DNA of 64,000 nt, from NCBI GenBank assembly GCA_041667545.1, contig JBAYES010000001.1, positions 5,928 to 69,927 on the forward strand, given 5' to 3'. Both the position numbers and the translations under genes were made by a program. The number at the start of each line of letters is the position of its first letter. Within the stretch, counting starts at the first letter, position 1. The notes below the pieces were generated by a model. It was not told the origin of the DNA, did not search any database, and saw only the letters and a list, made by a program, of their open reading frames with translations. Shown piece after piece: positions 16,576-64,000 of this stretch. The stretch is from Candidatus Omnitrophota bacterium. GTDB taxonomy: Bacteria; Omnitrophota; Gorgyraeia; Tantalellales; Tantalellaceae.

Positions 16576-16677
16576 CCCGGCGGCGACCGTCGGGACCGGC
16601 AAAGTGAAGACCACGCTGGATTTTTATTTTTTGAGATGGTATACTGCATTCTCACAAAATTACGGAAGGGTAATAAT

Positions 16678-29205: not shown

Positions 29206-29221
29206 CCAGTGGCGGGAGAAT

Positions 29222-29626
29222 ATGGAAGAGAAGAAGATACAAAAAAAAGATCTGAGAGAGTTTGGAATGGTGCTGTCTCTCATTCTGGCTCTTTTCGCGT
29301 TCATCCATTTCCGAAAAGGGCATTTTGATCTTACTAAATGGTTATCCATGTTCTCTGGCATGTCGGTTTTGTTCGCGATACTGGTGCCCGCGGCCTTAAT
29401 ACCGGCTTTTAAAGTTTTCACAAAAATAGCCCATGCTCTCGGCTGGTTCAACACAAGGCTTATCTTAGCCTTCGTTTACTATCTTATAGTAACCCCGATA
29501 GGTATAGTTTTCCGTATTTTCGGGAAAGATCTTTTGTCTTTAAAATTAGACAAGAACAAACCAAGCTACTGGCTTGACCATCATTCGGGAGGCGTCACGG
29601 CAGAGTCCCTGGAAAAACAGTTTTAG
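29222..29626 (+). CDS. SxtJ-like small membrane protein
   Basis: 134-aa protein with about 3 TM helices immediately downstream of the carbamoyltransferase. The ...REFGMVLSLILALF segment resembles SxtJ-family proteins. Confidence 0.45.
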   Translation: MEEKKIQKKDLREFGMVLSLILALFAFIHFRKGHFDLTKWLSMFSGMSVLFAILVPAALIPAFKVFTKIAHALGWFNTRLILAFVYYLIVTPIGIVFRIFGKDLLSLKLDKNKPSYWLDHHSGGVTAESLEKQF

Positions 29627-35012: not shown

Positions 35013-35533
35013 GCAAAGCAAATTCATCATATTCAAAGTATTTCTGGGACCTGAACGAAAAAGCGCTCACGGAAACAGCGGATATCTTAAAGGATCCCGA
35101 TCATGAGAGATTTCAGCAGAGAATGGTCAGACTGCTTTCCCGCTGTCAGAGCCCGGAAGAGCTTTTTTCTGTAATTTCAAAAGACAACTTTGTCAAAGCT
35201 TGGCCTAAATTGAGCAGGTACTGGGCAAAAATAGAAAAAATCTCGGATTTCAGAGACTGGTGGCAGACAATATACGAGGAGATCCTGAGAAGACAAGGCA
35301 AGGCCACGAAGGCAATGGGAGAGCCTTCGGCGCTCTTTAAGAATATCGGGGCAAAGATCAGGGAAGCAAGGACAGAAAAGGAAATCAGCCAGAAAGATCT
35401 TGCTTTGGCGGTTGGAATGAAACAGCCCGATATTTCCAAGATCGAAGAGGGTAAAAAGAACATTACTCTTGAAACTTTAGCCCGAATATGTAAATATCTG
35501 GATATTCGAGAAATAGGGATAATCGGAAAATAG
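35009..35533 (+). CDS. XRE-family HTH protein with an unknown N-terminal domain
   Basis: C-terminal ISQKDLALAVGMKQPDISKIEEGKKNITLETLARICKYLDI helix-turn-helix. An ATGA start/stop overlap links it to the upstream NTase gene. Confidence 0.55.
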   Translation: MSKANSSYSKYFWDLNEKALTETADILKDPDHERFQQRMVRLLSRCQSPEELFSVISKDNFVKAWPKLSRYWAKIEKISDFRDWWQTIYEEILRRQGKATKAMGEPSALFKNIGAKIREARTEKEISQKDLALAVGMKQPDISKIEEGKKNITLETLARICKYLDIREIGIIGK

Positions 35534-35551
35534 TAGGAAAGGGGGACAGGC
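35456..35551 (+). repeat. 96-bp direct repeat, copy 1 (3' end of the XRE gene plus AGGAAAGGGGGACAGGC)
   Basis: About 96% identical to 37614-37709. Confidence 0.9.
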
Positions 35552-35605
35552 TACTTTTTATTCCTACAGTTCCCACAATATAAAAAGTTGCCTGTCCCCC
35601 TTTTT
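35541..35605. terminator. long-stem hairpin with a T-run on either strand (GGGGGACAGGC...GCCTGTCCCCC TTTTT)
   Basis: 11-bp perfect GC-rich stem, extendable to about 20 bp through ACTTTTTA/TAAAAAGT, followed by TTTTT. A T-run also follows on the - strand. Second copy at 38463-38523. Confidence 0.55.
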
Positions 35606-35694
35606 CACAACGAGCAACCCCGTACCACTCGCTTCGCTCGGGCACGGGTAGGCGAGCACCCAGCAACCTCTATGGGCGAGTCAACATTTTAACG

Positions 35695-36462
35695 TTGGCG
35701 AAACTATGGAAACATGATCGATCGACGAGGTGCATGTTGAATAAACCGGAACTTAAACAGTATTTAATGAGCGGTCAGTTCCTGAATGCTCTGTCCAGAC
35801 GGAAATATTTTAGCTTTGACGAGCTTTATGCCAAATTGTCGAAAAAGTATCCGGATTTAAAAAGAGTACAGCTATCTCGCTATATGTTTGATGTTGTTAA
35901 AAATGGAAAAATATATGGCGCCGGTCGAGGATGGTACTCTTTGATCAAAAGTCCTTTGACGGCAGAGCCGGAGTTTGTTCAAGAAATTGTGGATCTTCTG
36001 GCCAATGAGTATCCGCAAGTTGTTTTTTCCTGTTGGTCGACCAAACATATCCGGTCTTTTATGCATCACCTGCTTGCGAAATTTGTGACATTTGTTTATA
36101 CGCAGTGGGAAGCGATGGAGATGATGGGAGATTTTCTGGAATCGGAAGGATACAAGGTATGGGTCAATCCGCACGGGAAGGATATTGATCGTTTCCATGT
36201 GAATATGGAGAAAACCGTTGTTATTCGCCCATTGATTTCTCGTGTTCCGGTTAATGGCCATTTTGCGACATTTGAGAAAATTCTGGTCGATCTGGGGGTG
36301 GAGATCCGGCAGTTGCCTTTAATGGATGAGAGCGAATATGACACCTTGTTATCGAATGCTTTGACAGCCGGACGTGTGGATGTCGGAACTCTGATTAGTT
36401 ATGCCAAGAGGCGGCGGTTAAGTATTGACAAGACTGTATTCAATATTCGCAAGGCGTTATGA
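35695..36462 (+). CDS. AbiEi-like antitoxin/transcriptional regulator
   Basis: N-terminal region with a GAGRGWYSL motif typical of AbiEi-family wHTH domains. Sits immediately upstream of an AbiEii gene. Confidence 0.5.
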   Translation: MAKLWKHDRSTRCMLNKPELKQYLMSGQFLNALSRRKYFSFDELYAKLSKKYPDLKRVQLSRYMFDVVKNGKIYGAGRGWYSLIKSPLTAEPEFVQEIVDLLANEYPQVVFSCWSTKHIRSFMHHLLAKFVTFVYTQWEAMEMMGDFLESEGYKVWVNPHGKDIDRFHVNMEKTVVIRPLISRVPVNGHFATFEKILVDLGVEIRQLPLMDESEYDTLLSNALTAGRVDVGTLISYAKRRRLSIDKTVFNIRKAL

Positions 36463-36515
36463 ATTAAATCCACATTTATCAAAAGTGTGGATTTAATTCA
36501 TATAGGGAATCTTAT

Positions 36516-37592
36516 ATGATTGAAAACAGGTGTTTTACGGCATCGTGGATTGAGCAAAAAAGGCGCGAAATCGGGCGTGTTGATCCGGCTCTCTTGGAAA
36601 AAACCATATATGCGATGGCACTTCTTTGCGGGCTGGCCCGGTCAAAAATGCCTTTTGTCTTCAAGGGCGGGACCAGTTTGATACTGCTCATTAAGGACTT
36701 CCGCAGGCTTTCCATCGATGTCGATATCGTTGCCGATATTCCACGGTCAGAATATGAGGTGATTCTGGAGGAGATCGGGAAGACGGCTCCGTTTTTGGGC
36801 TACGTGGAGGATAAGCGCGGTGACCGCGGCTTGCCAAGGCGGACGCATTTTAAGTTTGCGTATCATTCAGTCGTTTCTAAGCGCAAGGATTATGTTTTGC
36901 TGGATATTCTGGAAGAGAAGAATATCTATCCGACAACAAAGATGGTTGCCATTGAGCCTTCATTTGTAGAAGTATCACGGCGAGTTTCCGTACGAATGCC
37001 GACAGCCGAATGTCTCTTGGGGGACAAGCTTACGGCATTTGCTCCGAATACGATAGGTGTTCCTTACGAAAGGAAGTCCGGAATGCAGATCATCAAGCAC
37101 TTGTTTGATATCGGGGAGCTTTTTGGAGTTGCCGAAGATATGAACATGGTAAGACGGGCGTATGAAGCAATCGCCAGAGCTGAGATCGGCTATAGAGAGA
37201 ACGCTTTTATTTTGGAAGAGGCATTGACGGATACTTTTAATACTGGCGTCAAAGTTTGTATGATGGGCATGAGAGGAGAAAGGGCGGGTCGGGAAGCGGA
37301 GGTCTTGCGGAAGGGAATTCAACGGGTTGAAAGCCATCTGGTTAATACGTTGTTCACACTGACAGAAGCTAGATTAGCGGCATCTCGGGCGATTCTGTTA
37401 TCCGCTTTGGTGAGAGAAAAAACAGACCGCAGAGGTCTGGGGGCTTTTCGTTGGAAGCCACAAGATGACGGGGGATTGGGTTCGCTTTCGCTAAACGGGG
37501 AATTGGAGAGACTGAACCGGATCAAGTTGATCTCTCCGGAAGCGTTTCATAATCTCCACACGGCCCAAGGCTTTTTAGTCGAGAAGATATGA
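36516..37592 (+). CDS. AbiEii-family nucleotidyltransferase toxin (type IV TA/Abi)
   Basis: FKGGTSLILLIKDFRRLSIDVDIV NTase motif and DUF1814-like length of 358 aa. Confidence 0.65.
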   Translation: MIENRCFTASWIEQKRREIGRVDPALLEKTIYAMALLCGLARSKMPFVFKGGTSLILLIKDFRRLSIDVDIVADIPRSEYEVILEEIGKTAPFLGYVEDKRGDRGLPRRTHFKFAYHSVVSKRKDYVLLDILEEKNIYPTTKMVAIEPSFVEVSRRVSVRMPTAECLLGDKLTAFAPNTIGVPYERKSGMQIIKHLFDIGELFGVAEDMNMVRRAYEAIARAEIGYRENAFILEEALTDTFNTGVKVCMMGMRGERAGREAEVLRKGIQRVESHLVNTLFTLTEARLAASRAILLSALVREKTDRRGLGAFRWKPQDDGGLGSLSLNGELERLNRIKLISPEAFHNLHTAQGFLVEKI

Positions 37593-50869: not shown

Positions 50870-51130
50870 ATGGAGATTAAGGCCAACGAAGTATATACCG
50901 CACAGGAAGCGCAAAAACTGCTAAAGGTAAGCCCGAGCACCACAATGCGTCTTATCAAGGGGGGGGTAATACGCGCCGCCAAGGTCGGAAAGCAGTATAG
51001 GATAATGGGAAAAGAACTTTTGCGTATCGTTTCGCCCCAGATCGAGGATAAAGTGGGCAAGATATACAACAAAGGCCGTCAGTGGGTCCATGAGGGCATT
51101 GATGACGATGAAACGTTAAAAAAGAGGTAA
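50870..51130 (+). CDS. small helix-turn-helix DNA-binding protein (excisionase/MerR-like HTH_17-type)
   Basis: YTAQEAQKLLKVSPSTTMRLIKGGVIRAAKVGKQYRI is an HTH pattern typical of excisionase-family DNA-binding domains. Confidence 0.5.
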   Translation: MEIKANEVYTAQEAQKLLKVSPSTTMRLIKGGVIRAAKVGKQYRIMGKELLRIVSPQIEDKVGKIYNKGRQWVHEGIDDDETLKKR

Positions 51131-51398: not shown

Positions 51399-52379
51399 AT
51401 GAAAGATATTTTTAAGAATAAGGTCGTTCTTGTTACCGGAGGGACAGGATCGTTTGGGAGGAAGATCACAGAGATAGTATTAAGGAATTGTAATCCGAGA
51501 AAACTTATTATTTTTAGCCGTGATGAAATGAAACAATACGAAATGCACAAGGAGTTCGACAGCGATATTTTAAGATATTTCGTGGGAGATGTAAGGGATG
51601 TGGACAGATTAAAACGAGCCATGAAAGGGGTGGACATAATTGTTCACGCAGCGGCTTTAAAAATTGTGCCTACTGCTGAGTATAATCCATTTGAGGCGGT
51701 AAAGACCAACGTGATAGGCGCAGAGAACATAATTAATGTTGCCATTGACAATGGAGTTGAAAAGGTGGTCGCATTGAGTACTGATAAGGCCACAAACCCC
51801 ATAAATTTGTACGGAGCCACGAAGTTATGCTCGGAAAAAATGTTCATTGCCGCGAATAATTATTCTACGGAAAAGGGAACTCATTTCAGCGTTGTAAGGT
51901 ACGGTAATGTTTTTGGTTCAAGGGGAAGCGTCGCTCCTTTTTTCAAGAGATGCCGGGCCAAAGGAGTGGTTCCCATAACTGACGAAAGAATGACACGGTT
52001 CGGGATAACTTTAACGGATGGGGTTAAATTTGTCATGCAGAGTATTGCGGATATGCAGGGGGGGGAGATCTTTATTCCCAAAATACCAAGCATGAAAGTT
52101 ACGGATCTTGCCGAAGCTATCTGTCCTGGATGTAAAAAAGAAATAATAGGAATAAGAGCTGGAGAAAAATTGCATGAAGCTCTGGTTCCGGCAGATGATG
52201 GAATTCATACTTACGAATACGAGGACAGGTATATAACATATCCTTACGTTGTGACCTATGGAGAAAGGAAGGATGGTGGTCGCCCTCTGGGCCCGGAGTT
52301 TGAAGGCTATCGAAGTGACAATAATTCTTTATGGCTTAGTGTTGAGGATTTAAGAAAGATGTCGGAGGAATATGCTTGA
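51399..52379 (+). CDS. UDP-N-acetylglucosamine 4,6-dehydratase, PseB/FlaA1/CapD-like
   Basis: KNKVVLVTGGTGSFGRK N-terminus and 326-aa length typical of PseB. Confidence 0.8.
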   Translation: MKDIFKNKVVLVTGGTGSFGRKITEIVLRNCNPRKLIIFSRDEMKQYEMHKEFDSDILRYFVGDVRDVDRLKRAMKGVDIIVHAAALKIVPTAEYNPFEAVKTNVIGAENIINVAIDNGVEKVVALSTDKATNPINLYGATKLCSEKMFIAANNYSTEKGTHFSVVRYGNVFGSRGSVAPFFKRCRAKGVVPITDERMTRFGITLTDGVKFVMQSIADMQGGEIFIPKIPSMKVTDLAEAICPGCKKEIIGIRAGEKLHEALVPADDGIHTYEYEDRYITYPYVVTYGERKDGGRPLGPEFEGYRSDNNSLWLSVEDLRKMSEEYA

Positions 52380-53619
52380 CGTGAATATCCCCTACGGAAA
52401 ACAGAATATCAGCGGCAAGGATACAAAGTCAGTAGACGCTGTCCTTCGCTCAGATTGGATAACTCAAGGATCCAAGGTGGGCGAATTCGAGGCCTGCCTT
52501 GCCAGATATTGCAACTCTAAATTCGCGGTTGCTGTTTCCAGCGGTACCGCAGCTTTGCATTTGGCCTGCCTGGCCGCCGGCATAGGTAAAGGTGACGAAG
52601 CCATAACGAGCCCGATAACTTTTCTTGCCACTCCTAATTCCGTGCTCTATACCGGCGCGAAACCAGTATTTTCTGACATAGATTACGAAACAGTCAATAT
52701 AAGCCCAGTTGAAATATCTAAAAATCTGACCCGGAGAACGAGAGTCATTCTCCCGGTACATTTTGCAGGATTACCCTGTAAAATGCCTGAGATATCAAAG
52801 ATCGCCAGGAAAAACAAGTTGATTGTCATAGAAGACGGATGTCACGCGTTAGGGGCCGAGTATAAGCATGGGAAGGAGTTGGTAAAGGTCGGGAGCTGCA
52901 GACATTCGCATATGACTGTTTTTAGTTTTCATCCAGTGAAACACATAACAACGGGTGAGGGCGGAGCCATAACCACCAACAGCAAGGAGCTGTACAAAAA
53001 ATTGTGTATGTTAAGAACACACGGGGTTTACAGGGACCAGAAGATGGCGAGAGCGCGGGGGGGCTGGTATTATGAGATGAGGTCTCTCGGGTTTAACTAC
53101 AGAATAACCGATTTTCAGTGTTCTTTGGGTATTTCTCAGATGGGAAGGATCGACAGATTTCTCTCGGAAAGAAGGAAAATGGCGGATGTTTATGACAAGG
53201 AGTTTTCAGGTATGGGTGAAGTGATAAGAATTCCAAATCAACGGGTTGACAGTGAAAGGCATGCCTATCATCTTTACCTTTTAAGGTTGAATCCGGAATA
53301 TATATTTTTCAGCGGTTCACCGCGCTGTTCAGCTTTTTCAGTAGCTGACAATGGCCGTAAGGTCGGATTGGAAAGGAATAGAGTTATTGACGAACTTATA
53401 GAAAAAGGGATTCGCGCTCAAGTACACTACATTCCTGTATACAAGCAGCCTTACTATCGTGAAAACGGTTACGGGAGGGTTAACTGCATATCCTCGGAAA
53501 AATATTTCAATGAAACGATCTCACTACCCATATACCCTGGACTCAGCACCGATCAACAGGGGTATGTCATAAAGAACGTGAAGAAAGCATTATGTGCGGC
53601 GGCAAAAAAAAGCAGGTAA
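52372..53619 (+). CDS. DegT-family aminotransferase (PseC-like)
   Basis: PLP-aminotransferase pattern including ...VFSFHPVKHITTGEGG. Lies immediately after the PseB-like gene. Confidence 0.8.
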   Translation: MLDVNIPYGKQNISGKDTKSVDAVLRSDWITQGSKVGEFEACLARYCNSKFAVAVSSGTAALHLACLAAGIGKGDEAITSPITFLATPNSVLYTGAKPVFSDIDYETVNISPVEISKNLTRRTRVILPVHFAGLPCKMPEISKIARKNKLIVIEDGCHALGAEYKHGKELVKVGSCRHSHMTVFSFHPVKHITTGEGGAITTNSKELYKKLCMLRTHGVYRDQKMARARGGWYYEMRSLGFNYRITDFQCSLGISQMGRIDRFLSERRKMADVYDKEFSGMGEVIRIPNQRVDSERHAYHLYLLRLNPEYIFFSGSPRCSAFSVADNGRKVGLERNRVIDELIEKGIRAQVHYIPVYKQPYYRENGYGRVNCISSEKYFNETISLPIYPGLSTDQQGYVIKNVKKALCAAAKKSR

Positions 53620-54541
53620 TTTGAATATATCCAGGTTCACTTTGGGTACGGCTCAGTTGGGATTGGATTACGGTATAGCCAATATTAACGGCAAGCCGGA
53701 TATTGTTAAGGCTCTTGAGATTCTCAATGCTGCCGTTGGATGTGGTGTCACAAGCTTTGATACTTCCTATTCGTATGGCGAAAGCGAGGAGATTCTGGGT
53801 TCTTTTATCGCGAAAAGGGCGGGAAAGGGCGAGGGCCTGTCTATAATATCGAAACTTCCTAAGATACTTCTCGGTGTGAGCCCTGCTCCGCAGATTGTAT
53901 ATAAGGAAGTGAAAAAATATGTGACGGAGTCCATAAAAAGACTGAATGTAGACACGATATCGGTGTATTTGATGCATGATGCTTCGGACATATGCTCTTA
54001 CGAAGGGAATGTTCTTAAGAGCTTGACAAAAATAAGGGAAGAAGGGCTCATAGGAACGGTAGGAGCCTCTTTTTATTATCCGGACGATGCGGAGAGGGTT
54101 CTCGATGTGGACGATATAGGCGCAGTACAGGTCCCTGTTAATCTGATGGACCATAGATTCATCAGGAACGGACTTATGTCAAGATTATCCCGAAAGGGCA
54201 AGATCGTTTTTGCCAGAAGTGTATTCTTGCAGGGCTTGTTCTTCATGGACCATGAAGAACTATCTGAAAAAATGTGTCATGTGAAACCATATTTGCGCAA
54301 GGCCGTCAGCCTGGCAGGGGAACATAATCTTGGAATGGACGAACTGGCGATGGGGTTTGTGAATAGCATTCCGGGTATCTCATCTTTCGTAATAGGGGCA
54401 GATAATGCGACCCAGGTTCTGCGTAATAGTGAGCTGATCGATAATCCCCCGATGGACAGCCAGTTGTATGGCAAGATATCGGGGCATTTTGCATATGTTC
54501 CGGAAAAGGTGACAATACCTATTTTTTGGGGGAAGGAGTGA
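53594..54541 (+). CDS. aldo/keto reductase family oxidoreductase
   Basis: FTLGTAQLGLDYG N-terminus and D..Y..GESE AKR-like motifs. Confidence 0.65.
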   Translation: MRRQKKAGNLNISRFTLGTAQLGLDYGIANINGKPDIVKALEILNAAVGCGVTSFDTSYSYGESEEILGSFIAKRAGKGEGLSIISKLPKILLGVSPAPQIVYKEVKKYVTESIKRLNVDTISVYLMHDASDICSYEGNVLKSLTKIREEGLIGTVGASFYYPDDAERVLDVDDIGAVQVPVNLMDHRFIRNGLMSRLSRKGKIVFARSVFLQGLFFMDHEELSEKMCHVKPYLRKAVSLAGEHNLGMDELAMGFVNSIPGISSFVIGADNATQVLRNSELIDNPPMDSQLYGKISGHFAYVPEKVTIPIFWGKE

Positions 54542-54543
54542 AT

Positions 54544-55335
54544 ATGGGTATAAAAGAAATGTTCAGCCTTGAGGGTAAAGTCGCGATAGTTACAGGTGGA
54601 GCGGGCCACATAGGTTCGGCCATTAGTGAGATTTTAGCGACAGCAGGCGCTAAAGTGGTTATCGCCGGGTTAGATTCGGAAAAATCTAAAAAGAAGGCCG
54701 GAGAGATCATTAAAGAATGTGGCGAAGGATGTTCGGGAATAACAATGGATATTGCTTCTCCTCAAAAAGTAAGAAAAGCCATGAGAACAATAGCAGAGGA
54801 TTTCGGAGGGATAGATATCCTGGTTAATAACGCATATTTTGGAGGTCGCGGAAGTATCGAAGACATTTCCGACAAGAATTGGGAGAAGGGTATAGATGGG
54901 ACCATCAACTCTGTTTTTAGATGTTCGCAGTCTGTCATCCAACACATGGAAAAAAGAAAAGGCGGTTCGATAATTAACATATCGTCGATATATGGAATGG
55001 TTTCTCCGGACCCGTCAATATATGGAGGGACCGATTATCATAATCCTCCGAACTATGGCGCGGGAAAAGCCGCGATAATACAATTTACACGTTTTGGGGC
55101 GTGTCATCTGGCCGGAAAAAATATAAGAATGAATTGCGTTACTCCGGGGGCATTCCCGAACAAGGAAGTGCAAAAGGACGTAAAGTTCATATCAAAGCTT
55201 GAAAAAAAGATCCCTGCGGGCAGGATAGGATTACCCCGCGATATCAAGGGGGCTGTTCTATTTCTGGCATCAGAGGCGTCTTCATATGTCACAGGCGTTA
55301 ATTTAGTAGTAGATGGGGGGTGGACAGCTTGGTGA
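54544..55335 (+). CDS. SDR-family short-chain dehydrogenase/reductase
   Basis: VAIVTGGAGHIGSAI (TGxxxGxG), NNAY and YxxxK (YGAGKAA). Start at ATG 54544, after the previous stop. Confidence 0.8.
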   Translation: MGIKEMFSLEGKVAIVTGGAGHIGSAISEILATAGAKVVIAGLDSEKSKKKAGEIIKECGEGCSGITMDIASPQKVRKAMRTIAEDFGGIDILVNNAYFGGRGSIEDISDKNWEKGIDGTINSVFRCSQSVIQHMEKRKGGSIINISSIYGMVSPDPSIYGGTDYHNPPNYGAGKAAIIQFTRFGACHLAGKNIRMNCVTPGAFPNKEVQKDVKFISKLEKKIPAGRIGLPRDIKGAVLFLASEASSYVTGVNLVVDGGWTAW

Positions 55336-56033
55336 CGGGCAGTGAAAAGAAAGTGGCCGGGATCATACAGGCACGTATGTCCTCAAGAAGGCTCCCGGGT
55401 AAGGTAATGATGGATCTATCCGGCAAGACTTTGCTTTCGCGCGTTATAGACAGGACAAGAGCGGCAAAAAGGATTGACTCTATATGTGTGGCGACTTCCG
55501 CTTTCCCGGAAGATGATGTTATTGAAATAGAGGCACGCAGGAATGATGTTGAGGTATTCAGGGGAGACCTAGATAATGTTCTGATGAGATATTGCGGGGC
55601 TGCAGATTATATGGGGGCGGATTATGTATTAAGGATAACGGGAGATAACCCTCTTACGGAACCAAGTTTTATAGATATGTGCTCGGATAAGATATTAAAT
55701 GAAGATCTTGATTATGTTTTTGTGAGTGATGTGCCTTACGGCTCTGGCGCTGAAGCGATTTCGAGAAGAGCTTTGTTCGAGGCTTTGGCAAAAGCTGATA
55801 GCAAAGAAAAAGAACATGTGACCATGTACTTGTACAAGAACCCGGAAGATTTCAAAAATTCAACGATAGAACCACCACCCTGGTTAAGGAGGCCGGATAT
55901 CAGACTGACCATTGATACTCCGAAAGATTATATTTTTCTGAGAAAAGTATTTTCATATTTTTACGAGAAAGGTATTTCAAACATCGGGCTAAGAGCCGTC
56001 ATCGAACTTATCGACGAGATAGGGGGGGCTTGA
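55320..56033 (+). CDS. CMP-nonulosonic acid cytidylyltransferase-like protein (SpsF/PseF/NeuA family, CTP_transf_3)
   Basis: VAGIIQARMSSRRLPGKVM matches the acylneuraminate cytidylyltransferase N-terminal motif. The true start may be an internal GTG. Confidence 0.7.
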   Translation: MDSLVTGSEKKVAGIIQARMSSRRLPGKVMMDLSGKTLLSRVIDRTRAAKRIDSICVATSAFPEDDVIEIEARRNDVEVFRGDLDNVLMRYCGAADYMGADYVLRITGDNPLTEPSFIDMCSDKILNEDLDYVFVSDVPYGSGAEAISRRALFEALAKADSKEKEHVTMYLYKNPEDFKNSTIEPPPWLRRPDIRLTIDTPKDYIFLRKVFSYFYEKGISNIGLRAVIELIDEIGGA

Positions 56034-56800
56034 TGGTGAACTTGGGATTGAAACTGTGGTCCGATAACGACGAATATATGCCCCATGCAGAAGAATTGTA
56101 TAGGGAAGGGTATTATGATTTTATAGAGCTATATGCGGTTCCAGGGACATCAAAAGAATATCTGGATAGATGGAAGAGTCTGGGAGTCAAATTTGTTATA
56201 CATGCGCCGCATTCTTTTCATGGGTTCAATCTTGCGGACTCTGGCAGAGCTGGTCGTAATAAGGTATTGTTTGAAGAAGCAAGGCGGTTCGCCGATGGCC
56301 TTGCCGCGGAACATATAGTCGTGCATCCCGGGGTGTTAGGTACGGAGGATGCGGTATTTGAGCAGTTAAAAGTCTTTGGCGACAGCAGGGTATTGCTGGA
56401 GAATATGCCTTATAGGGCTTTAGACAAGGGGATCTGCGCGGGTCATGATCCGGAACGAGTTAGAGACCTTGTCTCGTCATGCCATATAGGTTTTTGTCTG
56501 GACATAGCCCATGCCAGCAATTACGCTATCAACTTTGGGTGGGATTATTGCGATGTGCTTGAGGAGTTTATGTGTATAGAACCCAAATTGATACATATGT
56601 GTGGAATAGATATTTCTTCTGAGACCGACAGCCACTTGCATTTAAAGGATAGCCAGGTTAGTATGGATGAAATAGGAGCGATAATAAGAGGTTCCGGGGT
56701 AAAAAGATGTACGTTGGAGACCCCGAAGGATTCTCGAATCAATCTTGATGATTTCAAAGAAGAAATTTCAACGGCGCGAAAAATTTTGGGCGGATCATGA
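56030..56800 (+). CDS. TIM-barrel sugar phosphate isomerase/epimerase-like protein (xylose isomerase-like fold)
   Basis: Length and dispersed His/Glu/Asp pattern are compatible with the AP-endonuclease-2/xylose-isomerase-like TIM barrel. Assignment is weak. Confidence 0.4.
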   Translation: MMVNLGLKLWSDNDEYMPHAEELYREGYYDFIELYAVPGTSKEYLDRWKSLGVKFVIHAPHSFHGFNLADSGRAGRNKVLFEEARRFADGLAAEHIVVHPGVLGTEDAVFEQLKVFGDSRVLLENMPYRALDKGICAGHDPERVRDLVSSCHIGFCLDIAHASNYAINFGWDYCDVLEEFMCIEPKLIHMCGIDISSETDSHLHLKDSQVSMDEIGAIIRGSGVKRCTLETPKDSRINLDDFKEEISTARKILGGS

Positions 56801-57870
56801 TAAAAAAAATAGAGGTAGCTGGTCGCGTGATAGGGGATGGGTTTAAAACTTTCATAATAGCGGAGGCCGGAGCTAATTGGAAATACTGCAGAGATATGGA
56901 TCTTAATTATAAACACGCGATCAAGCTTATTAATATCGCCGCAGATTCGGGCGCGGATGCCGTTAAGTTCCAGGTGTACAGAGCCGCAAAGCTGTATGTT
57001 AAGTCAGCTGGTCACGCGGGTTACATAGGCAAGAATAAACCGATATACGATATCATTAAGGATATGGAAATACCCTATGAGTGGATACCGGAATTGAAGG
57101 ATCGATGTGATAAAAGAGGGATAGTTTTTCTTGCTACTCCGTTTGATGAAGAGTCGGTCATTGTACTTGAGAAGGCGGCGATAGAACTTTATAAGATAGC
57201 GTCGTATACTATTTCTCATCTACCCCTTGTCGAGATGATAGCGAGGCTCAACAAGCCTATCATTTTGTCTACCGGGGCATCCAACATTGCCGATATAGAC
57301 AGGGCACTTGAGACCGTGTCAAAATGGGGTAATGACAGGATTGCTCTTATGCAATGCACGGCCCGATATCCCGCATCGCTTGAGACCATTAATTTAAGAG
57401 TCATAAGTACTCTGAAAAATAAATATGATATTCCGGTAGGGCTTTCTGACCATTCCAGAAATCCAATTGTAGCGCCTCTCGGCGCGGTGAGTATCGGGGC
57501 AAATATCTTGGAAAAGCATTTCACAACTGACAATTCTTTGGATGGTCCGGATCATGGGTTTGCCCTGCTTCCAGAAGAGTTCAAGATGATGGTGGATTAT
57601 ATCAGAATGATGGAACGGGCGATTGGTAGTGGGGTCAAGGAGATCCAGAAGGAAGAAGAAGAATTGCATGGATTTTGCAGAAGGAAAATATATGCTGTAA
57701 AAGACATTTTACAAGGTGAATCTTTCTCGGAGGACAATATCGGGGTTTTGCGGAGTGGTCACGCTGCTAAAGGGCTGGATCCTCTGGAATATGGAAACGC
57801 GATCGGGAAAAGAGCAAGAATCCGTATTAAGGCAGGTGATCCTATAACCAAGGAAGTTCTGGATGAATGA
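56797..57870 (+). CDS. nonulosonic acid synthase (NeuB/PseI/SpsE family)
   Basis: FIIAEAGANW...AADSGADAVKFQ NeuB motif plus a C-terminal SAF (antifreeze-like) domain. Confidence 0.85.
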   Translation: MIKKIEVAGRVIGDGFKTFIIAEAGANWKYCRDMDLNYKHAIKLINIAADSGADAVKFQVYRAAKLYVKSAGHAGYIGKNKPIYDIIKDMEIPYEWIPELKDRCDKRGIVFLATPFDEESVIVLEKAAIELYKIASYTISHLPLVEMIARLNKPIILSTGASNIADIDRALETVSKWGNDRIALMQCTARYPASLETINLRVISTLKNKYDIPVGLSDHSRNPIVAPLGAVSIGANILEKHFTTDNSLDGPDHGFALLPEEFKMMVDYIRMMERAIGSGVKEIQKEEEELHGFCRRKIYAVKDILQGESFSEDNIGVLRSGHAAKGLDPLEYGNAIGKRARIRIKAGDPITKEVLDE

Positions 57871-60121
57871 TTACGGGTTATCTTTCCGGCCGGCTGTCAG
57901 GGAAGATTGTTCCCTGTTTCATATGTGGAGGAATGAGAGTATTGTCCGGGATCGTTCTTTTTCGGGTGATATGATAGGTTTAGAGGAGCATAAAGAATGG
58001 TTTGAGAAAAAATTGATCGATGGTAATTGCAAAATGTTCGTTTTGCAGAGAAACAGCATCCCACTTGGGCAGGTCAGGTTTGACATTTTAGGAAAGAAAG
58101 CCGAAATAAGCCTGTCTATTTCGAGTGAGTATAGAGGCATGTCATATGGCAAAAGAAGTATCAGAATGATGTCGGATTACATACTACGCAGTGGTATTGC
58201 TGACAGAGTGGTTGCGTATGTAAAGGAGGGGAACAAGTCTTCATTGGGAGCTTTCAGATCCTCGGGGTATACGGTATTGAACGAGAATATCATAGTCAAG
58301 GGGCAGAAGGCGATTGAGCTAGAGTACTCAGAGGAAGGCAGGCGGACCAGGCCCATCAAGTATCTTGCTACGACATCTCTTAAGCAAATATGGGAGAAGG
58401 AAAGAGATATTGTTTTGCTGGGGCCTTGGTGTTTTGATGGAGAGACGTATGAGGGCGAACCCTCCTCTATTGCCCTATCTCTGGCAAAAGATATAAAATA
58501 TACTACTGAGAACCTGATACCAAATGCGAATTATTGTGAGAAAGTTTACGGGGAGCTGATAGGTGAAATGACGGCTGTTATGAACGCTGTGCACGATGTC
58601 CAGGAGAGCGTCGATTACTGGGCAATTGTTCTTAACCCCTGGCTTGTTTTTCATATTTGCATGATGCATGAAAAATACACCAGGATATTGAAAGTTCAGA
58701 ACGAGCATAAGGATGGACTATATACTCATACGGTGGAACCCGACGAGAATCTAGCTCCGATGGATACCCGGGAGTTTCTTTTCAATAAGGTCGGAGATCC
58801 TGTCTATAACTTGCAGTTATTTTCTCAAATTATTAAAGCATCTGGGATGAACCATCATAAAGCAGAGAAATTTAGTCCTCTTCGCCCGGAGACGGGCTAT
58901 AGTCGTTGGGGGGAAGCCTTGAACTCAGTCAAAATTTTCGTTAAACGTATGTTTTATAAAAGTCTGTCGGCTTTTCTCGCAGAAAGCGATGTTGTCATGA
59001 CCGACATGTATCACATCGATTTTTGGGACTGCGTTCATTTAAGTCTGGCTACAGGATCGGCAATTTGTTTGGATACTATTTTTCCATGCCGGCGTACCGA
59101 AATATTTGATTATGATAAAGAACTCAGAGGAAAGATGAAAATGGCGAAAGGGGATGACCCTTTTGTGAATGTATTAAAGGAAAGCATCATATACTCCATG
59201 CCTCGTTGTTATGTTGAGGGATACGCTTATGTCTCGGGGCGAGTGAACGATATCAAGAGAAAAAAACCACATTTTATTATATCCGCGATAGGGTGGTACT
59301 TTAATGAAATGTTTAAGTTTTATGCGGCTCGAATGAAGAGCAAAGGCAGCAAGTTAGTAGGTGTTCAACATGGCGGGGATTACGGCTACAGTCTTTACCA
59401 ATCGGCGTTCATTTTTGAGCTGAAAAACAAAGACATGTTCTTCAGTTGGGGGTGGGGAAAAGGTATGGATAAGATAAAGGCGCTTCCCAATCCACATCTT
59501 TCCAGGATCAAGAATACATACTCGAATAGGGGGGACGGGATCCTCTATATATCTACCAATTATCCAAAACATTTTTTCTCTTTGTTGAGCTATCCTGGTA
59601 CCGAAGGGATGGAAATGTATTTCGAACAACAATTTTCTTTTTTGAAAAAAATGCCTTCTCGTCTGACCGGAAAATTGTACTATCGTTCTTACCCGACGGA
59701 TTACGGCAGGAGGATAAAAGACAGGGTAAAAATGATGAATCCTTCGATCAGGTGGGCCGACAAGTCCAGGAGTTTTCAGTGGATGAGGCGATCTAGACTA
59801 GTCGTATTGGATCACCCCGGGACATCCTTTGTGGAAGCCATGGTGGTGAACGTGCCATTGATACTTTTCTATAGCAGGGAATTATGGGCTATGTCACCTT
59901 ATGCAGAGAGTCTTTTTGATGCGATGAGGAGTAAAGGTATTGTTCAACCCAATCCTGATTCTGCTGCGGTTAAACTGGATGAAGTCTATGATAATGCTCG
60001 TGAATGGTGGAAGGATAGGCAGATACAAAAGATCAGAGAAGAATTTATTGAAAGCTATGGATATTCCCGGAAAAACTGGAGGGATATATGGGCCAAAGAA
60101 ATACGTTTATTGAAAGACTAA
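57863..60121 (+). CDS. fusion protein: N-terminal GNAT acetyltransferase (PseH-like) plus a C-terminal domain of about 580 aa and unknown function
   Basis: First roughly 170 aa have a GNAT layout (...RNESIVRDRSF... NCKMFVLQRNSIPLGQVRF...). The remaining 580 aa match no motif I recognise with confidence. Confidence 0.55.
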   Translation: MNDYGLSFRPAVREDCSLFHMWRNESIVRDRSFSGDMIGLEEHKEWFEKKLIDGNCKMFVLQRNSIPLGQVRFDILGKKAEISLSISSEYRGMSYGKRSIRMMSDYILRSGIADRVVAYVKEGNKSSLGAFRSSGYTVLNENIIVKGQKAIELEYSEEGRRTRPIKYLATTSLKQIWEKERDIVLLGPWCFDGETYEGEPSSIALSLAKDIKYTTENLIPNANYCEKVYGELIGEMTAVMNAVHDVQESVDYWAIVLNPWLVFHICMMHEKYTRILKVQNEHKDGLYTHTVEPDENLAPMDTREFLFNKVGDPVYNLQLFSQIIKASGMNHHKAEKFSPLRPETGYSRWGEALNSVKIFVKRMFYKSLSAFLAESDVVMTDMYHIDFWDCVHLSLATGSAICLDTIFPCRRTEIFDYDKELRGKMKMAKGDDPFVNVLKESIIYSMPRCYVEGYAYVSGRVNDIKRKKPHFIISAIGWYFNEMFKFYAARMKSKGSKLVGVQHGGDYGYSLYQSAFIFELKNKDMFFSWGWGKGMDKIKALPNPHLSRIKNTYSNRGDGILYISTNYPKHFFSLLSYPGTEGMEMYFEQQFSFLKKMPSRLTGKLYYRSYPTDYGRRIKDRVKMMNPSIRWADKSRSFQWMRRSRLVVLDHPGTSFVEAMVVNVPLILFYSRELWAMSPYAESLFDAMRSKGIVQPNPDSAAVKLDEVYDNAREWWKDRQIQKIREEFIESYGYSRKNWRDIWAKEIRLLKD

Positions 60122-60136
60122 CCCTGGAGGATAGAG

Positions 60137-61366
60137 ATGAGATATTGTAAAAGGTGTGTATATCCGGAGTCGTCCGCTGTAAAGCTTACGTTTGATGAGA
60201 GGGGAATATGCAGTGGATGCAGAGTTGCTGAAGAAAAAGAAAAACTGGATTGGGGTGAGCGTGAAAAACAATTGAGAAAGATCCTAGAGTCATATAAGGG
60301 ACAGGCAGAATATGACTGTATAATTCCGGTGTCAGGTGGCAAGGATAGTCACTATCAGGTGTATCTGATAAAAGAAGTTTATGGCCTAAACCCTCTTCTG
60401 GTGACATTTAACCACACTTTTAATACGAGGCTGGGAATAGATAATCTTACGAACCTTGTTGAAAAATTTGGTTGCGATCACTTAAGGTTTACGCCCAGTC
60501 CTAAAACAGTGAAAAAGCTTGCCAGGGTTGCTCTCAAAAAGATGGGGGACTTTTGCTGGCATTGTCATTGTGGTATTTTTACCTATCCCGTTCAGGTAGC
60601 CGTGAAATATCGGATACCTTTATTGATATGGGGGGAACAGGGTTTCTTAGACTTAGGGGGTATGTTTTCGCATTACGATATGATTGAAATGACGAGGAGG
60701 TTCAGGACGGAGCATGGTCTCAGGGGATACGACTATTCCGATTTGATCGACGAGAAAGAGGGGATAACGGCAGAAGACTTGAGGTGGGCGGTATATCCTT
60801 CAGATAAGGATATCGAGCGTGTGGGGGTCAGGGGCATTTATCTTGGTAATTTTGTTAATTGGAACGGAAAAAAACAGACGGAGTTTTTAATAAAAAATTA
60901 TAATTTTCAGACGGCTCGTGAATCAAGAAGTTACAATACCTACGAAAACGTCGAATGTCATCATTGTGGTGGTGCCCATGACTATCTCAAATGGCTTAAA
61001 TTTGGCTATGGCAGGGCCACAGATCATGCGTCGCAAGATATACGTTTGGGTAGGATGACGAGAGAGGAGGGTGTTGATATGGTTGAGAAATACGACGCGA
61101 AACGTCCAAATGACCTAGATCCGCTTCTTGATTGGCTGGAGATAAGTGAGGAAGAATTTGTCGAGGCCGTTGATGGGATGAGGGATCCGCGCGCGTGGAA
61201 AAAAGAGAACGGCAAGTGGATATTGCAAGATCATGTGAGAAATCACCGGAACGATCCTGGAGTAGAGGAGGTAAGGGTGCCTCTTGATGAAGAAAAACGA
61301 AAAACGAGAGAATATGTTCTGACATGTCCAAGAGGTAAGTTCGCCGATGGATATGTCAGGATGTGA
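60137..61366 (+). CDS. N-acetyl sugar amidotransferase (WbuX/PseA-like, PP-loop ATPase)
   Basis: N-terminal CKRCVYPESS...CSGC zinc ribbon and PP-loop PVSGGKDSHYQ. Followed by HisH/HisF homologs. Confidence 0.8.
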   Translation: MRYCKRCVYPESSAVKLTFDERGICSGCRVAEEKEKLDWGEREKQLRKILESYKGQAEYDCIIPVSGGKDSHYQVYLIKEVYGLNPLLVTFNHTFNTRLGIDNLTNLVEKFGCDHLRFTPSPKTVKKLARVALKKMGDFCWHCHCGIFTYPVQVAVKYRIPLLIWGEQGFLDLGGMFSHYDMIEMTRRFRTEHGLRGYDYSDLIDEKEGITAEDLRWAVYPSDKDIERVGVRGIYLGNFVNWNGKKQTEFLIKNYNFQTARESRSYNTYENVECHHCGGAHDYLKWLKFGYGRATDHASQDIRLGRMTREEGVDMVEKYDAKRPNDLDPLLDWLEISEEEFVEAVDGMRDPRAWKKENGKWILQDHVRNHRNDPGVEEVRVPLDEEKRKTREYVLTCPRGKFADGYVRM

Positions 61367-61385
61367 AATATTACATCATTTTATG

Positions 61386-62003
61386 AAGACGCTTGTAGTT
61401 GATTACAACATAGGAAATTTGCAGTCCATGGTTAATGCTCTGAAAATGGTCGGAGGTGATGTGATAGTTTCTAACAAGGGGGAAGATTTTGAAAAGGCTT
61501 CACATATAGTTTTGCCAGGTGTCGGAGCGTTTGGGGAAGGTATGAAGAATCTTGAAGCCCTGGGGTTGATCGAATTACTGCACAAACATGTGATCGAGAA
61601 AAAAAAGCCATTTTTAGGTGTATGTTTGGGAATGCAGCTTATATGTGGATATAGCTGTGAGGGGGGAGATTACAAAGGCCTTGGGTGGGTTACCTCTAAA
61701 GTCCAATACCTGGGGCAGGGTATAACGGGATTGTTGATTCCACATGTAGGATGGAATGACGTTGTCCCGAGGGATAAAAGTGTTTTATTTCCCGATCCGC
61801 TGAAAACCTATGTGTTTTACTTTGTTCACAGCTACCACTGCGAGTCAGAATCGCAAGATGTTGTTAGTTCGGAATGTTTCTACGGACGCAAATTCACCGC
61901 AAGCTTTGAACATGAAAATATTTTTGCCACGCAGTTTCATCCAGAAAAAAGTCAGCTTTTGGGGTTAGAGTTGTTAGGTAACTTTTTAAATTATCGTTTT
62001 TGA
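61386..62003 (+). CDS. glutamine amidotransferase subunit, HisH-like (WbuY-type)
   Basis: LVVDYNIGNLQSMVNAL...VLPGVGAFG...GVCLGMQL catalytic Cys and a HxxE C-terminus. Start at ATG 61386. Confidence 0.8.
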   Translation, partial: KTLVVDYNIGNLQSMVNALKMVGGDVIVSNKGEDFEKASHIVLPGVGAFGEGMKNLEALGLIELLHKHVIEKKKPFLGVCLGMQLICGYSCEGGDYKGLGWVTSKVQYLGQGITGLLIPHVGWNDVVPRDKSVLFPDPLKTYVFYFVHSYHCESESQDVVSSECFYGRKFTASFEHENIFATQFHPEKSQLLGLELLGNFLNYRF

Positions 62004-62019
62004 TTGCAGGGAAACATAT

Positions 62020-62862
62020 ATGCTTAAAAAAAGGCTTATTGCCGTACTTCTCCTGAAGAACGGGCATCTGGTCAAAACTAGGAATTTTGATAATTTTCAG
62101 ATAATTGGTAGTCCTTTGCAGTCCATCGAGAGGTTCAATTCATGGGCAGTTGATGAAATATTGCTGCTGGATTTGAGTACAGAAAAATTTTACGACCACG
62201 AAAGATATGATTGTGGATATGAGAACCCGGATTCTATTGAGGGTATAATCTCATACCTTTCAAGATCTTGTTTTGTCCCGCTTGCGGTTGGAGGGGGAAT
62301 ACACAATATTGAAGATATTAAACAGCGCCTTAAATTTGGCGCGGATAAAGTAGTTATAAATACGCAGGCATTCAATGCTCCCGGTTTTATTGTCGAAGCA
62401 GCGAAGATGTTCGGGAAACAGTGCATAGTGGTATCGATAGATGTTAAGTTTGGCAGCGGCGGAAGGCCAACCGTTCATGTGGCGCATGGTAATAAGGATA
62501 CAGGACTTGATCCGGTAGTATGGGCTAAAGAAGTTGAAACATTTGGTGCCGGGGAAATTTTGCTTAACTCTGTAGACAGGGATGGCACTATGTCTGGATA
62601 TGACCTTGATCTAATAAGATCCGTCACCGAAAATGTAGATATACCAGTTATCGTTTGTGGTGGGGCAGGGGAATGGAGCCATTTTGTTGATGCTATTAAT
62701 CTTGGCCAAGCTTCGGCCGTTGGAGCTGCTAATATTTTCTATTTCAGGGAACAGAGTACACGAATAGCGAAGAAATATATGAAAGCTTCCGGTATCAATG
62801 TGCGTTTCGCCGAGGATTTTGAGAAATTTATAAACATTAAGAATAATCAGGCCACACGGTGA
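62020..62862 (+). CDS. cyclase subunit, HisF-like (WbuZ-type)
   Basis: HisA/HisF TIM-barrel pattern (...VPLAVGGGI..., ...IVVSIDVK..., ...GAGEILLNSVDRDGT...). Confidence 0.8.
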   Translation: MLKKRLIAVLLLKNGHLVKTRNFDNFQIIGSPLQSIERFNSWAVDEILLLDLSTEKFYDHERYDCGYENPDSIEGIISYLSRSCFVPLAVGGGIHNIEDIKQRLKFGADKVVINTQAFNAPGFIVEAAKMFGKQCIVVSIDVKFGSGGRPTVHVAHGNKDTGLDPVVWAKEVETFGAGEILLNSVDRDGTMSGYDLDLIRSVTENVDIPVIVCGGAGEWSHFVDAINLGQASAVGAANIFYFREQSTRIAKKYMKASGINVRFAEDFEKFINIKNNQATR

Positions 62863-63299
62863 GGAACGATTTGTCATTTTTAAAGTTCATAAAACAAATA
62901 TTTTGGCGGACACCCGGGAAGTTCATTTTTATCGTTATTTTTATAATCCTGGCTGGTATGCTTGAAGGTGTGGGGTTTACGCTTTTTTCAAATCCTTTTA
63001 TACGGCATATCATTAATACTTTACGACTGGTGGAAAGGACTCATTGGTTTAAATTGCAGGAGGTTTTTGACGAGCTGGCATATCTATTAAAAGCTTTATC
63101 ATTCGAAGGGATATGTTCAGATTGCCGCGACGCACTCAAAGAAAAGTTCCTGATATTCGCTGATATAGATAGGTTTTATAAGAACTGGATATCAGGAGGA
63201 CTTGCCATGGATCAAAACATAGTAGACGGGTATATGGATATAGTAGATAGGGTTTTGTTGAACGGCGCCGAGGAGTGCGCGGGAGTACTGCATGGATAA
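62859..63299 (+). CDS. hypothetical protein
   Basis: 146-aa ORF with an N-terminal hydrophobic segment, co-directional and overlapping with its neighbours. No recognised family. Confidence 0.4.
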   Translation: MRNDLSFLKFIKQIFWRTPGKFIFIVIFIILAGMLEGVGFTLFSNPFIRHIINTLRLVERTHWFKLQEVFDELAYLLKALSFEGICSDCRDALKEKFLIFADIDRFYKNWISGGLAMDQNIVDGYMDIVDRVLLNGAEECAGVLHG

Positions 63300-64000
63300 C
63301 TCAGAGACGATGAAAGCTTGGGCAGACAATTGGTCCCCCCACAGCGTGAGTGAAGTGATGTCGATATTCGGATATATCAGAGTTAAGAGATTGCTGACTA
63401 TTTTTAGGGAATTGTTACCGGTCGAAGGCAAGATCCTAGAAGGTGGATGCGGGTTGGGACCATGGGTCATCAAATTGCGTGAACTTGGGTACGATGTCAC
63501 GGGCGTGGATTACGACACGGCCTCTATCGGTAAGATCAAGGAATACGATCCCATTATACCGGCGTATGTTGCGGATGTAAACAGCATGCCGTTCGAAAAC
63601 AATACTTTTGATGCTTACATGTCATTGGGCGTGCTTGAACATTTTGTTGAAGGTCCTCAAGAAGCTATTGAAGAAGCTCGAAGGGTTATGAAATCTGATG
63701 GATTGTTCCTGATAACGCTGCCCTACTTGAACCTGTTATTGAGGGTGAAGCGTCCTTATGAAAGATTGAAAAGGATTGGTTGGGTTAGAGGGCTCTTAGG
63801 GAAAGAACAAAAAGTCTTCTATTACGAGCGTTATTTTAACGTGCGCGAGATATGCAATTATCTTGAGGCTGGGGGTTTCGAGGTCGAGGAGATTAAGCCG
63901 ATCGATCATATATTCTCATTCGTTTCTTTTTCGAGAATTTTCAGGGATAAAATGTCTTATGATGGAGAGAATGATCTTGCTGTGAAGGCCGCAGATATTT
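63292..64000 (+). CDS. class I SAM-dependent methyltransferase, partial (runs off the window end)
   Basis: My manual translation from ATG 63292 gives ...ILEGGCGLGPWV...VTGVDYD...MSLGVLEHF..., which are methyltransferase motifs I and II. No stop before 64000, so it is absent from the ORF track. Confidence 0.55.
   Translation, partial: MDNSETMKAWADNWSPHSVSEVMSIFGYIRVKRLLTIFRELLPVEGKILEGGCGLGPWVIKLRELGYDVTGVDYDTASIGKIKEYDPIIPAYVADVNSMPFENNTFDAYMSLGVLEHFVEGPQEAIEEARRVMKSDGLFLITLPYLNLLLRVKRPYERLKRIGWVRGLLGKEQKVFYYERYFNVREICNYLEAGGFEVEEIKPIDHIFSFVSFSRIFRDKMSYDGENDLAVKAADI

Follow-up and report, generated by a model that had tools for sequence, protein, structure and literature searches.

How can a pathway for a pseudaminic-acid-type sugar be completed when its operon holds no PseG? 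The question is raised by positions 51399-62862 of a 64-kb window (the whole stretch of DNA analysed here, 64,000 nucleotides from a Candidatus Omnitrophota bacterium). Pseudaminic acid (Pse) decorates flagella, S-layers, capsules and lipopolysaccharide, its pathway is a drug and vaccine target, and genome surveys score that pathway as "incomplete" when PseG is absent. Based on the sequence evidence presented below, the most likely answer is that PseG is replaced here by a TIM-barrel protein resembling endonuclease IV (Endo IV) and encoded within the same operon, in a non-orthologous replacement that extends across Bacteria and Archaea.

The region consists of eleven + strand open reading frames (ORFs) that overlap or nearly abut, and it is taken as one operon for this reason. 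Families were called with Pfam and NCBIfam models, the NCBIfam bit scores being compared with their curated cutoffs. The genes that an initial annotation of this DNA had named are all present by ORFs, Pfam and NCBIfam, as follows:

51399..52379, + strand: PseB, inverting UDP-GlcNAc 4,6-dehydratase (TIGR03589, 492 bits, cutoff 408; PF02719)
52372..53619, + strand: PseC, pyridoxal phosphate (PLP)-dependent aminotransferase (TIGR03588, 449 bits, cutoff 423.5)
53594..54541, + strand: aldo/keto reductase (AKR), counterpart of the C-terminal half of EpaA (PF00248); according to other gene callers it starts at ~53621 or ~53642
54526..55335, + strand: short-chain dehydrogenase (SDR), EpaB-like (PF13561/PF00106)
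55320..56033, + strand: CTP_transf_3 cytidylyltransferase (CT), presumed CMP-nonulosonate synthetase (PF02348, 113 bits)
56030..56800, + strand: Endonuclease-IV-like TIM-barrel metalloenzyme (TIM protein), proposed PseG stand-in (PF01261, AP_endonuc_2)
56797..57870, + strand: NeuB-family nonulosonate synthase with SAF domain, in the role of PseI (PF03102 and PF08666)
57863..58300, + strand: GNAT domain, PseH-like N-acetyltransferase, N-terminal part of a 752-residue fusion (PF13302, residues 6-136)
58364..60121, + strand: LIC12162-family GT-B domain of the same fusion, probable CMP-nonulosonate glycosyltransferase (TIGR04331)
60137..61366, + strand: WbuX-type N-acetyl sugar amidotransferase, a PP-loop ATPase (TIGR03573, 396 bits, cutoff 203)
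61347..62003, + strand: HisH-like glutaminase subunit (TIGR01855, 204 bits, cutoff 105)
62020..62862, + strand: HisF/WbuZ-like subunit (best match WbuZ, TIGR03572, 260 bits, cutoff 300)

We give somewhat better than an even chance to the view that this region forms one operon whose products make a modified, CMP-activated sugar of the pseudaminic-acid type, with the TIM protein in the place of PseG, and attach it to a surface glycan. As in the canonical CMP-pseudaminic acid pathway of Helicobacter pylori and Campylobacter jejuni (PseB-PseC-PseH-PseG-PseI-PseF), PseB, PseC, a PseH-like GNAT, a NeuB-family synthase and a CT are gathered in one operon. The window differs from it in that PseG is missing and the Endo-IV-like TIM protein stands in that slot, in that the CT is of the SpsF type and not of the PseF type, in the additional AKR and SDR genes, and in that neither the synthase nor the GNAT reaches the cutoff of its model, PseI and PseH, respectively. 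The cassette PseB-PseC-AKR-SDR-CT-TIM-NeuB-GNAT-LIC12162 was also found in two other loci, L003 and L009, at 43-72% identity, with the GNAT and LIC12162 as separate genes in the latter; blastn gave no match to it in E. coli genomes.

The absence of PseG was examined over more than the window itself, since the parent contig (L001; ENA ERZ27247361) extends the view by ~8 kb downstream. Neither PF04101 (PseG) nor PF02350 (NeuC) matched the substantial + strand ORFs of the window or those downstream ORFs of L001 that carry no precomputed Pfam label, and neither family is among the precomputed labels there. A hidden Markov model (HMM) of the PseG domain, derived from PseG-PseH fusion proteins and extended using domain envelopes only (31 sequences), detected nothing in six-frame ORFs of at least 70 residues in the window or L001. 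As all three models were unmatched, the lack of a recognisable PseG, which the initial annotation had pointed out, is real within ~72 kb.

The TIM protein had been described as "TIM-barrel isomerase-like", a description that its active site contradicts. A PDB profile search with the proteins of the window, L003 and L009 matched Endo IV-type structures only (MJ1311, Mycobacterium tuberculosis End, 8edd, 8axy and Thermus thermophilus Endo IV), no isomerase or epimerase being among the matches, and in the profile alignments the motifs HAP, HPG, EN, DxxH, H, DxH and ET of the TIM protein fall onto the equivalent Endo IV motifs. The positions concerned (H58, H99, E124, D158, H161, H189, D200, H202 and E230 in window numbering) correspond to the nine metal ligands of the trinuclear site in Endo IV, as reported by Hosfield et al. 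(1999). None of them varies among the 38 unique locus sequences, and essentially all of the family's 150 best cluster representatives keep them too. Ketose epimerases of the Endo IV superfamily use only four of the nine ligand positions (see also PMC7733943); the conservation of the complete Endo IV site therefore indicates that, by its active site, the TIM protein is a metallo-phosphoesterase and not isomerase-like.

Endonuclease IV (Nfo) and the window protein have in common the TIM barrel and the nine His/Asp/Glu ligands, but their sequence similarity is very low: on the Endo IV Nfo model (NF002198) the window protein reaches 28.5 bits against a cutoff of 244, and by sequence it is not a bona fide Nfo. 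Its genomic context is also distinct, being that of nonulosonic acid biosynthesis and not DNA repair, as for Nfo, or cobamide salvage, as for CbiR. The latter, a cobamide phosphodiesterase of the AP endonuclease 2 superfamily, cleaves the ribose-O-P bond of cobamides (PMC7733943), that is, a sugar-O-phosphate bond in a small molecule, and hence provides a precedent for such chemistry in this superfamily. A HMMER search of 1.84 billion cluster representatives gave 478 members of the TIM family at E <= 1e-10, counted as clusters at 50% identity, so that the family has at least this size. Its members are currently annotated as "deoxyribonuclease-4" (a label carried by one member in the Joint Genome Institute (JGI) data) or "sugar phosphate isomerase", and a full-text search of the literature gave no paper tying such an Endo-IV-like protein to pseudaminic acid.

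The TIM profile, run against GTDB genomes with one genome per species, retrieved 35 loci (L010-L044), belonging to Mailhella, Muribaculaceae, Gastranaerophilales, Termititenax, Treponemataceae, phyla of the candidate phyla radiation (CPR) and Atribacterota among the bacteria, and to Methanolobus, Methanosarcina, Methanohalophilus, Methanoperedens, Altiarchaeales and Bathyarchaeia among the archaea. When the window proteins were mapped onto these loci, 32 of the 35 TIM genes lay within PseB/PseC/NeuB/CT clusters, the remaining three being at contig ends. Compact arrangements were found in L010 (PseC-TIM-GNAT-NeuB-CT) and in L011, where the order is PseB-PseC-TIM-...-GNAT-formyltransferase-PIG-L-NeuB-CT-methyltransferase-WbuX-HisH-HisF. 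The formyltransferase-like and PIG-L deacetylase genes seen inside TIM-type Pse clusters (L011 11921-13280; L030 7027-7743) are a hint of N-formyl or re-acylated Pse variants.

As a control independent of the TIM protein, 80 metagenome loci were retrieved by means of a PseB alignment, and none of them contained a TIM homologue. The 31-sequence HMM detected PseG in 27 of these 80 loci as well as in four LIC12162 loci without TIM, and did not detect it in the window, L003, L009 or any of L010-L044. Among 48 distinct loci that combine PseB (at least 45% identity), PseC and NeuB, 17 had only the TIM gene, 25 had only PseG, none had both and 6 had neither.

The two proteins also occupy the same place. 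The closest relative of the window cassette without TIM (L008), whose products are 75% (PseB), 59% (PseC), 49% (AKR), 61% (SDR), 53% (CT) and 44% (LIC12162) identical to those of the window, encodes a 298-residue PseG immediately after the CT, which is the slot of TIM in the window. A Metallophos gene of L008, considered as a UDP-sugar pyrophosphatase standing in for TIM, was discarded because this locus has PseG. In L069 the order is PseB-PseC-AKR-CT-(PseG-GNAT)-NeuB-LIC12162. As for gene fusions, 44 of the best 150 out of 478 TIM family representatives are at least 370 residues long, and 39 of these 44 carry a PseH-type GNAT fused to the TIM domain; PseG is joined to the same partner in P0011, P0012, L067 and L069. 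The location in Pse clusters, the mutual exclusion with PseG, the common slot and the common GNAT partner are four independent lines of evidence that argue for the TIM protein as the replacement of PseG; of the two candidates put forward by the initial annotation for this step, the TIM-barrel protein is thus the one that gains support.

Based on these data the following pathway can be proposed. PseB, PseC and the GNAT would produce UDP-2,4-diacetamido-2,4,6-trideoxy-L-altrose, the GNAT domain presumably acetylating N4. The TIM metalloenzyme would then release UDP and free the hexose, its trinuclear metal centre hydrolysing the sugar-O-P bond, as suggested by comparative genomics and by the conservation of the active site; the net reaction would be that of PseG, with a different fold and a different bond cut. 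The NeuB-family synthase would join the hexose to phosphoenolpyruvate, the SDR and AKR would change the configuration of one hydroxyl through an oxidation and a reduction, probably that at C8, like EpaB and EpaA to judge from architecture and homology, the SpsF-type CT would form the CMP-sugar, and WbuX with HisH/HisF would convert one N-acetyl group to N-acetimidoyl. Finally, the LIC12162 GT-B domain may transfer the sugar to an acceptor made by the surrounding locus with its Wzx, Wzy-like, GT2 and GT-C proteins. The proposal taken in full, which we hold with about even confidence, is that the Endo-IV-like TIM family is an unrecognised UDP-sugar phosphoesterase that replaces PseG in many Bacteria and Archaea by P-O and not C-O cleavage, and that in this operon it feeds the synthesis of an 8-epi, acetamidino sugar transferred by the first LIC12162 protein assignable as a nonulosonate transferase.

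Several points weigh against this proposal. The contrast in PseG content, with PseG in 0/17 loci with TIM and 25/31 loci without it (Fisher 2e-8), is descriptive only, because the loci were picked via TIM or PseB and are phylogenetically related. The six PseB, PseC and NeuB loci with neither gene are L047, L103, L112, L114, L115 and L122; some of them are on truncated contigs, while L115 and L112 look complete enough, and there may be a third solution to the PseG step. In a Pfam scan of 86 unassigned ORFs (250-480 residues) from 25 TIM loci, PF04101 and PF02350 were not among the 25 commonest families, which excludes NeuC-type hydrolases only to a bound of <=2/25 TIM loci, as the last family listed has two members. 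As the scores of the synthase and the GNAT do not reach the PseI and PseH cutoffs, and SpsE is the nearest match of the synthase, the final stereochemistry of the product can be assigned only tentatively. Furthermore, the AP_endonuc_2 superfamily includes some isomerases, and the ~72 kb in view are a part of the genome, so that a PseG gene could lie elsewhere.

The last two points are combined in the alternative that a PseG encoded elsewhere, or a generic hydrolase, removes UDP, the TIM protein acting as an isomerase or epimerase that alters the configuration of either the hexose or a keto-nonulosonate intermediate; C7, adjacent to a C8 ketone, would be one such site, as required for acinetaminic-type sugars. 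Many ketose epimerases and isomerases belong to the AP_endonuc_2 superfamily, the TIM gene adjoins an oxidoreductase pair able to make a keto intermediate and the genome was seen in part. Nevertheless, we regard this explanation as rather unlikely, as the nine Endo IV ligands are invariant where epimerases need four, the AKR occurs in just 4/17 and the SDR in 2/17 TIM-type loci, and TIM and PseG strictly exclude each other while sharing a locus slot and a fusion partner.

The synthase and the CT bear on the type of the product. The synthase scores 311 bits on the NeuB_NnaB model (cutoff 400) and 278 bits on that of PseI (cutoff 340), and its PDB matches are SpsE at 261 bits, PseI at 193 and NeuB, the N-acetylneuraminic acid (Neu5Ac) synthase, at 143. 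SpsE is the legionaminic acid (Leg) synthase of Bacillus subtilis (PMC7439481). In addition, identities of 36-42% link the window synthase equally to its counterparts in PseG-type and in TIM-type Pse loci, and by sequence it belongs to the Pse/Leg group, in line with the initial annotation, both SpsE and PseI ranking above the Neu5Ac synthase. The CT reaches 19.6 bits on the PseF model TIGR03584 (cutoff 206), has 6oew as its best solved relative and, judged by sequence, is of the SpsF/EpaA-N (N-terminal half) type and not of the PseF type; this CTP_transf_3 subtype is the sole CT in many canonical PseB-PseC-CT-PseG-NeuB loci. It could be argued from the higher score of the synthase on NeuB_NnaB than on PseI, its closeness to SpsE and the SpsF-like CT that the product of the operon is a nonulosonic acid of the legionaminic or some other non-Pse type, in which case PseG is not the relevant missing enzyme. 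This appears quite improbable given that PseB and PseC both exceed their curated equivalog cutoffs, that the same type of synthase (36-42% identity) is present in loci with PseB, PseC and PseG, and that no NeuC/LegG-type gene was found either in the scanned window and downstream ORFs.

The proposed epimerisation is modelled on two described systems. In Acinetobacter baumannii prophages EpaA (CTP_transf_3 and Aldo_ket_red) and EpaB (adh_short_C2) convert Pse5Ac7Ac into 8-epi-Pse5Ac7Ac (8ePse) (PMC12053666), and a Pse cluster of Vibrio sp. B9-25K2 with a CT-AKR fusion and a dehydrogenase makes a variant, PseAc2, with altered behaviour in tandem mass spectrometry (PMC7371886). The same three Pfam families accompany Pse genes in the window; unlike EpaA/EpaB, however, they are encoded by three separate genes in the order AKR-SDR-CT, with the CT as the only cytidylyltransferase of the operon, and the likeness is one of architecture. 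Two of the control loci, L067 and L094, hold a 555-570-residue CT-AKR fusion followed by an SDR, between PseC and PseG, and these fusion halves and SDRs are 31-42% identical to the window CT, AKR and SDR (31-33% over the full length for the AKR with the C-terminal half of the fusions; 41-42% for the SDR). By this homology, the AKR, SDR and CT of the window are the unfused form of the module, and an 8-epi (or otherwise epimerised) product seems likely from sequence, which fits the reduced or epimerised sugar that had been anticipated. A tblastn search of phage records with the AKR retrieved unrelated reductases only, and no CT-AKR fusion was present among the top 120 matches of the AKR homologue search. 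In some PseG-type loci (L056 5143-7311; L069 3366-5405) the CT constitutes the N-terminal third of a 680-723-residue protein.

The second candidate of the initial annotation for the PseG step, the 580-residue domain fused to the GNAT, probably has a different function. Residues 168-746 of the 752-residue protein match the LIC12162 family TIGR04331 at 374 bits (cutoff 225; PF27859 is the precomputed label). The GNAT domain scores 31 bits on the PseH model TIGR03585 (cutoff 93) and is considered PseH-like because the GNATs most closely related to it are joined to PseG or to NeuB. An assembly artefact as the origin of the fusion was ruled out, as the protein was found on contigs of more than one independent assembly (ENA and Logan) and a 43%-identical homologue, P0019, has the same 752-residue architecture. 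In L009, the closest relative, the GNAT (161 residues) and LIC12162 (593 residues) are encoded by separate, abutting genes, from which it follows that the fusion is recent.

Sixty LIC12162 homologues were collected, and an AlphaFold2 model of the domain, built on a 64-sequence alignment, had a pLDDT (predicted local distance difference test) of 91.5. Foldseek comparison of the model with the PDB returned GT-B glycosyltransferases only, with <=13% identity (SenB, PglH, WaaG, glycogen synthase and OGT, with NeuC lower in the list). Where LIC12162 genes are unfused, they directly follow a CTP_transf_3 gene or have NeuB close by, in nonulosonic-acid clusters of various kinds, and a LIC12162 gene coexists with a clear PseG gene in L005, L006, L007, L008 and L069, which argues that the domain is not a PseG substitute. 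An "HP motif" (D491-H492-P493-x-T495; H 78% and P 69% conserved) resembles those of sialyltransferases and 3-deoxy-D-manno-octulosonic acid (Kdo) transferases and is a lead only. The window protein is a full-length match to the LIC12162 family (TIGR04331/PF27859; "transferase" of Leptospira O-antigen loci) and adjoins NeuB and the CT like the other members examined, but it is fused to a PseH-like GNAT, as is P0019, and the transferase role is still a prediction in a family that is uncharacterised. In the most economical reading, the domain is probably a CMP-nonulosonate glycosyltransferase.

According to the opposite view, the LIC12162 GT-B domain would be the substitute of PseG in a bifunctional enzyme of the PseH-PseG type, and the TIM protein would do something else. 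Such a role is suggested by the GT-B fold, which is also that of PseG, with NeuC among the Foldseek matches, by the fusion to a PseH-type GNAT, as observed for PseG in P0011 and P0012, and by the occurrence of LIC12162 in all four cassette relatives (window, L003, L008 and L009). It is very improbable considering the five loci mentioned above in which LIC12162 and PseG coexist, the presence of LIC12162 in only 2/17 TIM-type Pse loci, the Herbaspirillum member that adjoins a complete neuABC set (PMC6679464) and the features of the family itself, which is ~2x the size of PseG and usually adjoins a cytidylyltransferase, as expected of a transferase. That the TIM gene is an ordinary DNA-repair endonuclease IV lying in the operon by chance, as the JGI label and the metal ligands identical to those of Endo IV could imply, is scarcely credible in view of the low Nfo score, the 32/35 genome loci inside nonulosonic-acid clusters and the fusion of a quarter of the 150 best representatives to a PseH-type acetyltransferase.

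Unfused LIC12162 genes were also observed in unusual NeuB clusters (L006 1-21800; L007 1-21866) together with B12-radical-SAM and SPASM enzymes, a PIG-L deacetylase, WbqC, HMGL-like or HpcH aldolases and a second cytidylyltransferase. These clusters may make an undescribed ulosonic acid.

The modification encoded at the end of the operon is better known. WbuX retains an intact PP-loop (SGGKDS, residues 66-71), and the HisH-like protein keeps its Cys (GVCLG) and the His-Pro-Glu motif; these features, and PseB and PseC scores over the cutoffs, uphold the description of the region as a pseudaminic-acid-type operon with a WbuX/HisH/HisF module. The HisF-like protein reaches neither the WbuZ nor the AglZ/HisF2 cutoff, and the position corresponding to HisF Asp11 is not conserved in it. 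In C. jejuni, hisH/hisF-like genes presumably adjoin pseA (cj1316c). The pseA gene is required for acetamidino-Pse in that organism (PMC4690887). Like C. jejuni PseA and other WbuX/WbuY/WbuZ amidotransferases, the window has a WbuX, a HisH triad and a HisF-like partner, directly downstream of the Pse genes, and differs from the known sets in the score of the HisF-like protein, which is under the WbuZ cutoff. The target of the amidotransferase is assigned by adjacency only, because the surrounding locus makes other amino sugars.

The combination of Pse genes with WbuXYZ is known biology, and the WbuX module is a common accessory of such clusters. WbuX homologues were found in 5/17 TIM-type and 4/25 PseG-type loci, that is, in 9/42 environmental Pse-type loci, and measurements on a Methanoperedens enrichment have revealed acetamidino (Pse/Leg)AcAm (PMC11337218), which is at odds with the earlier suggestion that this type of sugar is uncommon outside pathogens. 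The L003 cassette is without WbuXYZ; in that locus (1594-3385) a PtmE-like gene (NTP_transferase and CBS) and a second CT precede the cassette, as in GDP-linked legionaminic acid pathways.

Two further ORFs follow the operon:

62859..63299, + strand: 146-residue ORF that overlaps both neighbours, an uncertain member of the system, predicted as a gene also on the identical Logan contig L002 and matching no Pfam or NCBIfam model
63292..64000, + strand: S-adenosylmethionine (SAM)-dependent methyltransferase (PF08241), cut by the window end and complete (256 residues) in L001 at 15430-16200, possibly a glycan modifier

Directly upstream of PseB, separated by a 170-bp gap, an 86-residue HTH_17 (excisionase/MerR-like) protein is encoded (50870-51130), which could be a regulator or a mobile-element remnant at the operon edge. 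The operon as a whole is part of a large locus for a surface glycan, which includes Rml genes, UDP-sugar dehydrogenases, a carbamoyltransferase, GT2, GT-C, YfhO and a Wzy_C-like protein, a Wzx flippase being located downstream. The carbamoyltransferase (Carbam_trans_N/C), which is followed by a small SxtJ-like protein (27376-29626), suggests that this glycan also contains an O-carbamoylated sugar. The middle of the locus (34302-37592) is interrupted by two genes for AbiEii-type toxins (34302-35012 and 36516-37592), each beside a putative partner, an HTH_3 protein (35009-35533) and DUF6577 (35695-36462), and the GC content falls there to ~0.41. A 922-residue ORF without Pfam match (16636-19404) separates two GGDEF proteins from the beginning of the glycan locus. 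In the 242-residue ORF at 20875-21603, matches to dTDP_sugar_isom (residues 2-150) and Polysacc_synt_C (15-133) cover one and the same part; the two assignments are incompatible, hence the gene call or frame is doubtful.

The new element in this locus is the replacement of PseG by an Endo-IV-like metalloenzyme family spread over Bacteria and Archaea, as predicted from sequence. LIC12162 as a nonulosonate transferase and, provisionally, the unfused AKR/SDR/CT trio as an epimerisation (and activation) module are testable roles that emerge along with it. If the replacement is true, it would add a new catalytic route by which a sugar is released from UDP, a widespread mis-annotation would be corrected, and hundreds of bacterial and archaeal clusters, in methanogens, Methanoperedens, CPR bacteria and gut taxa, could be read as complete.

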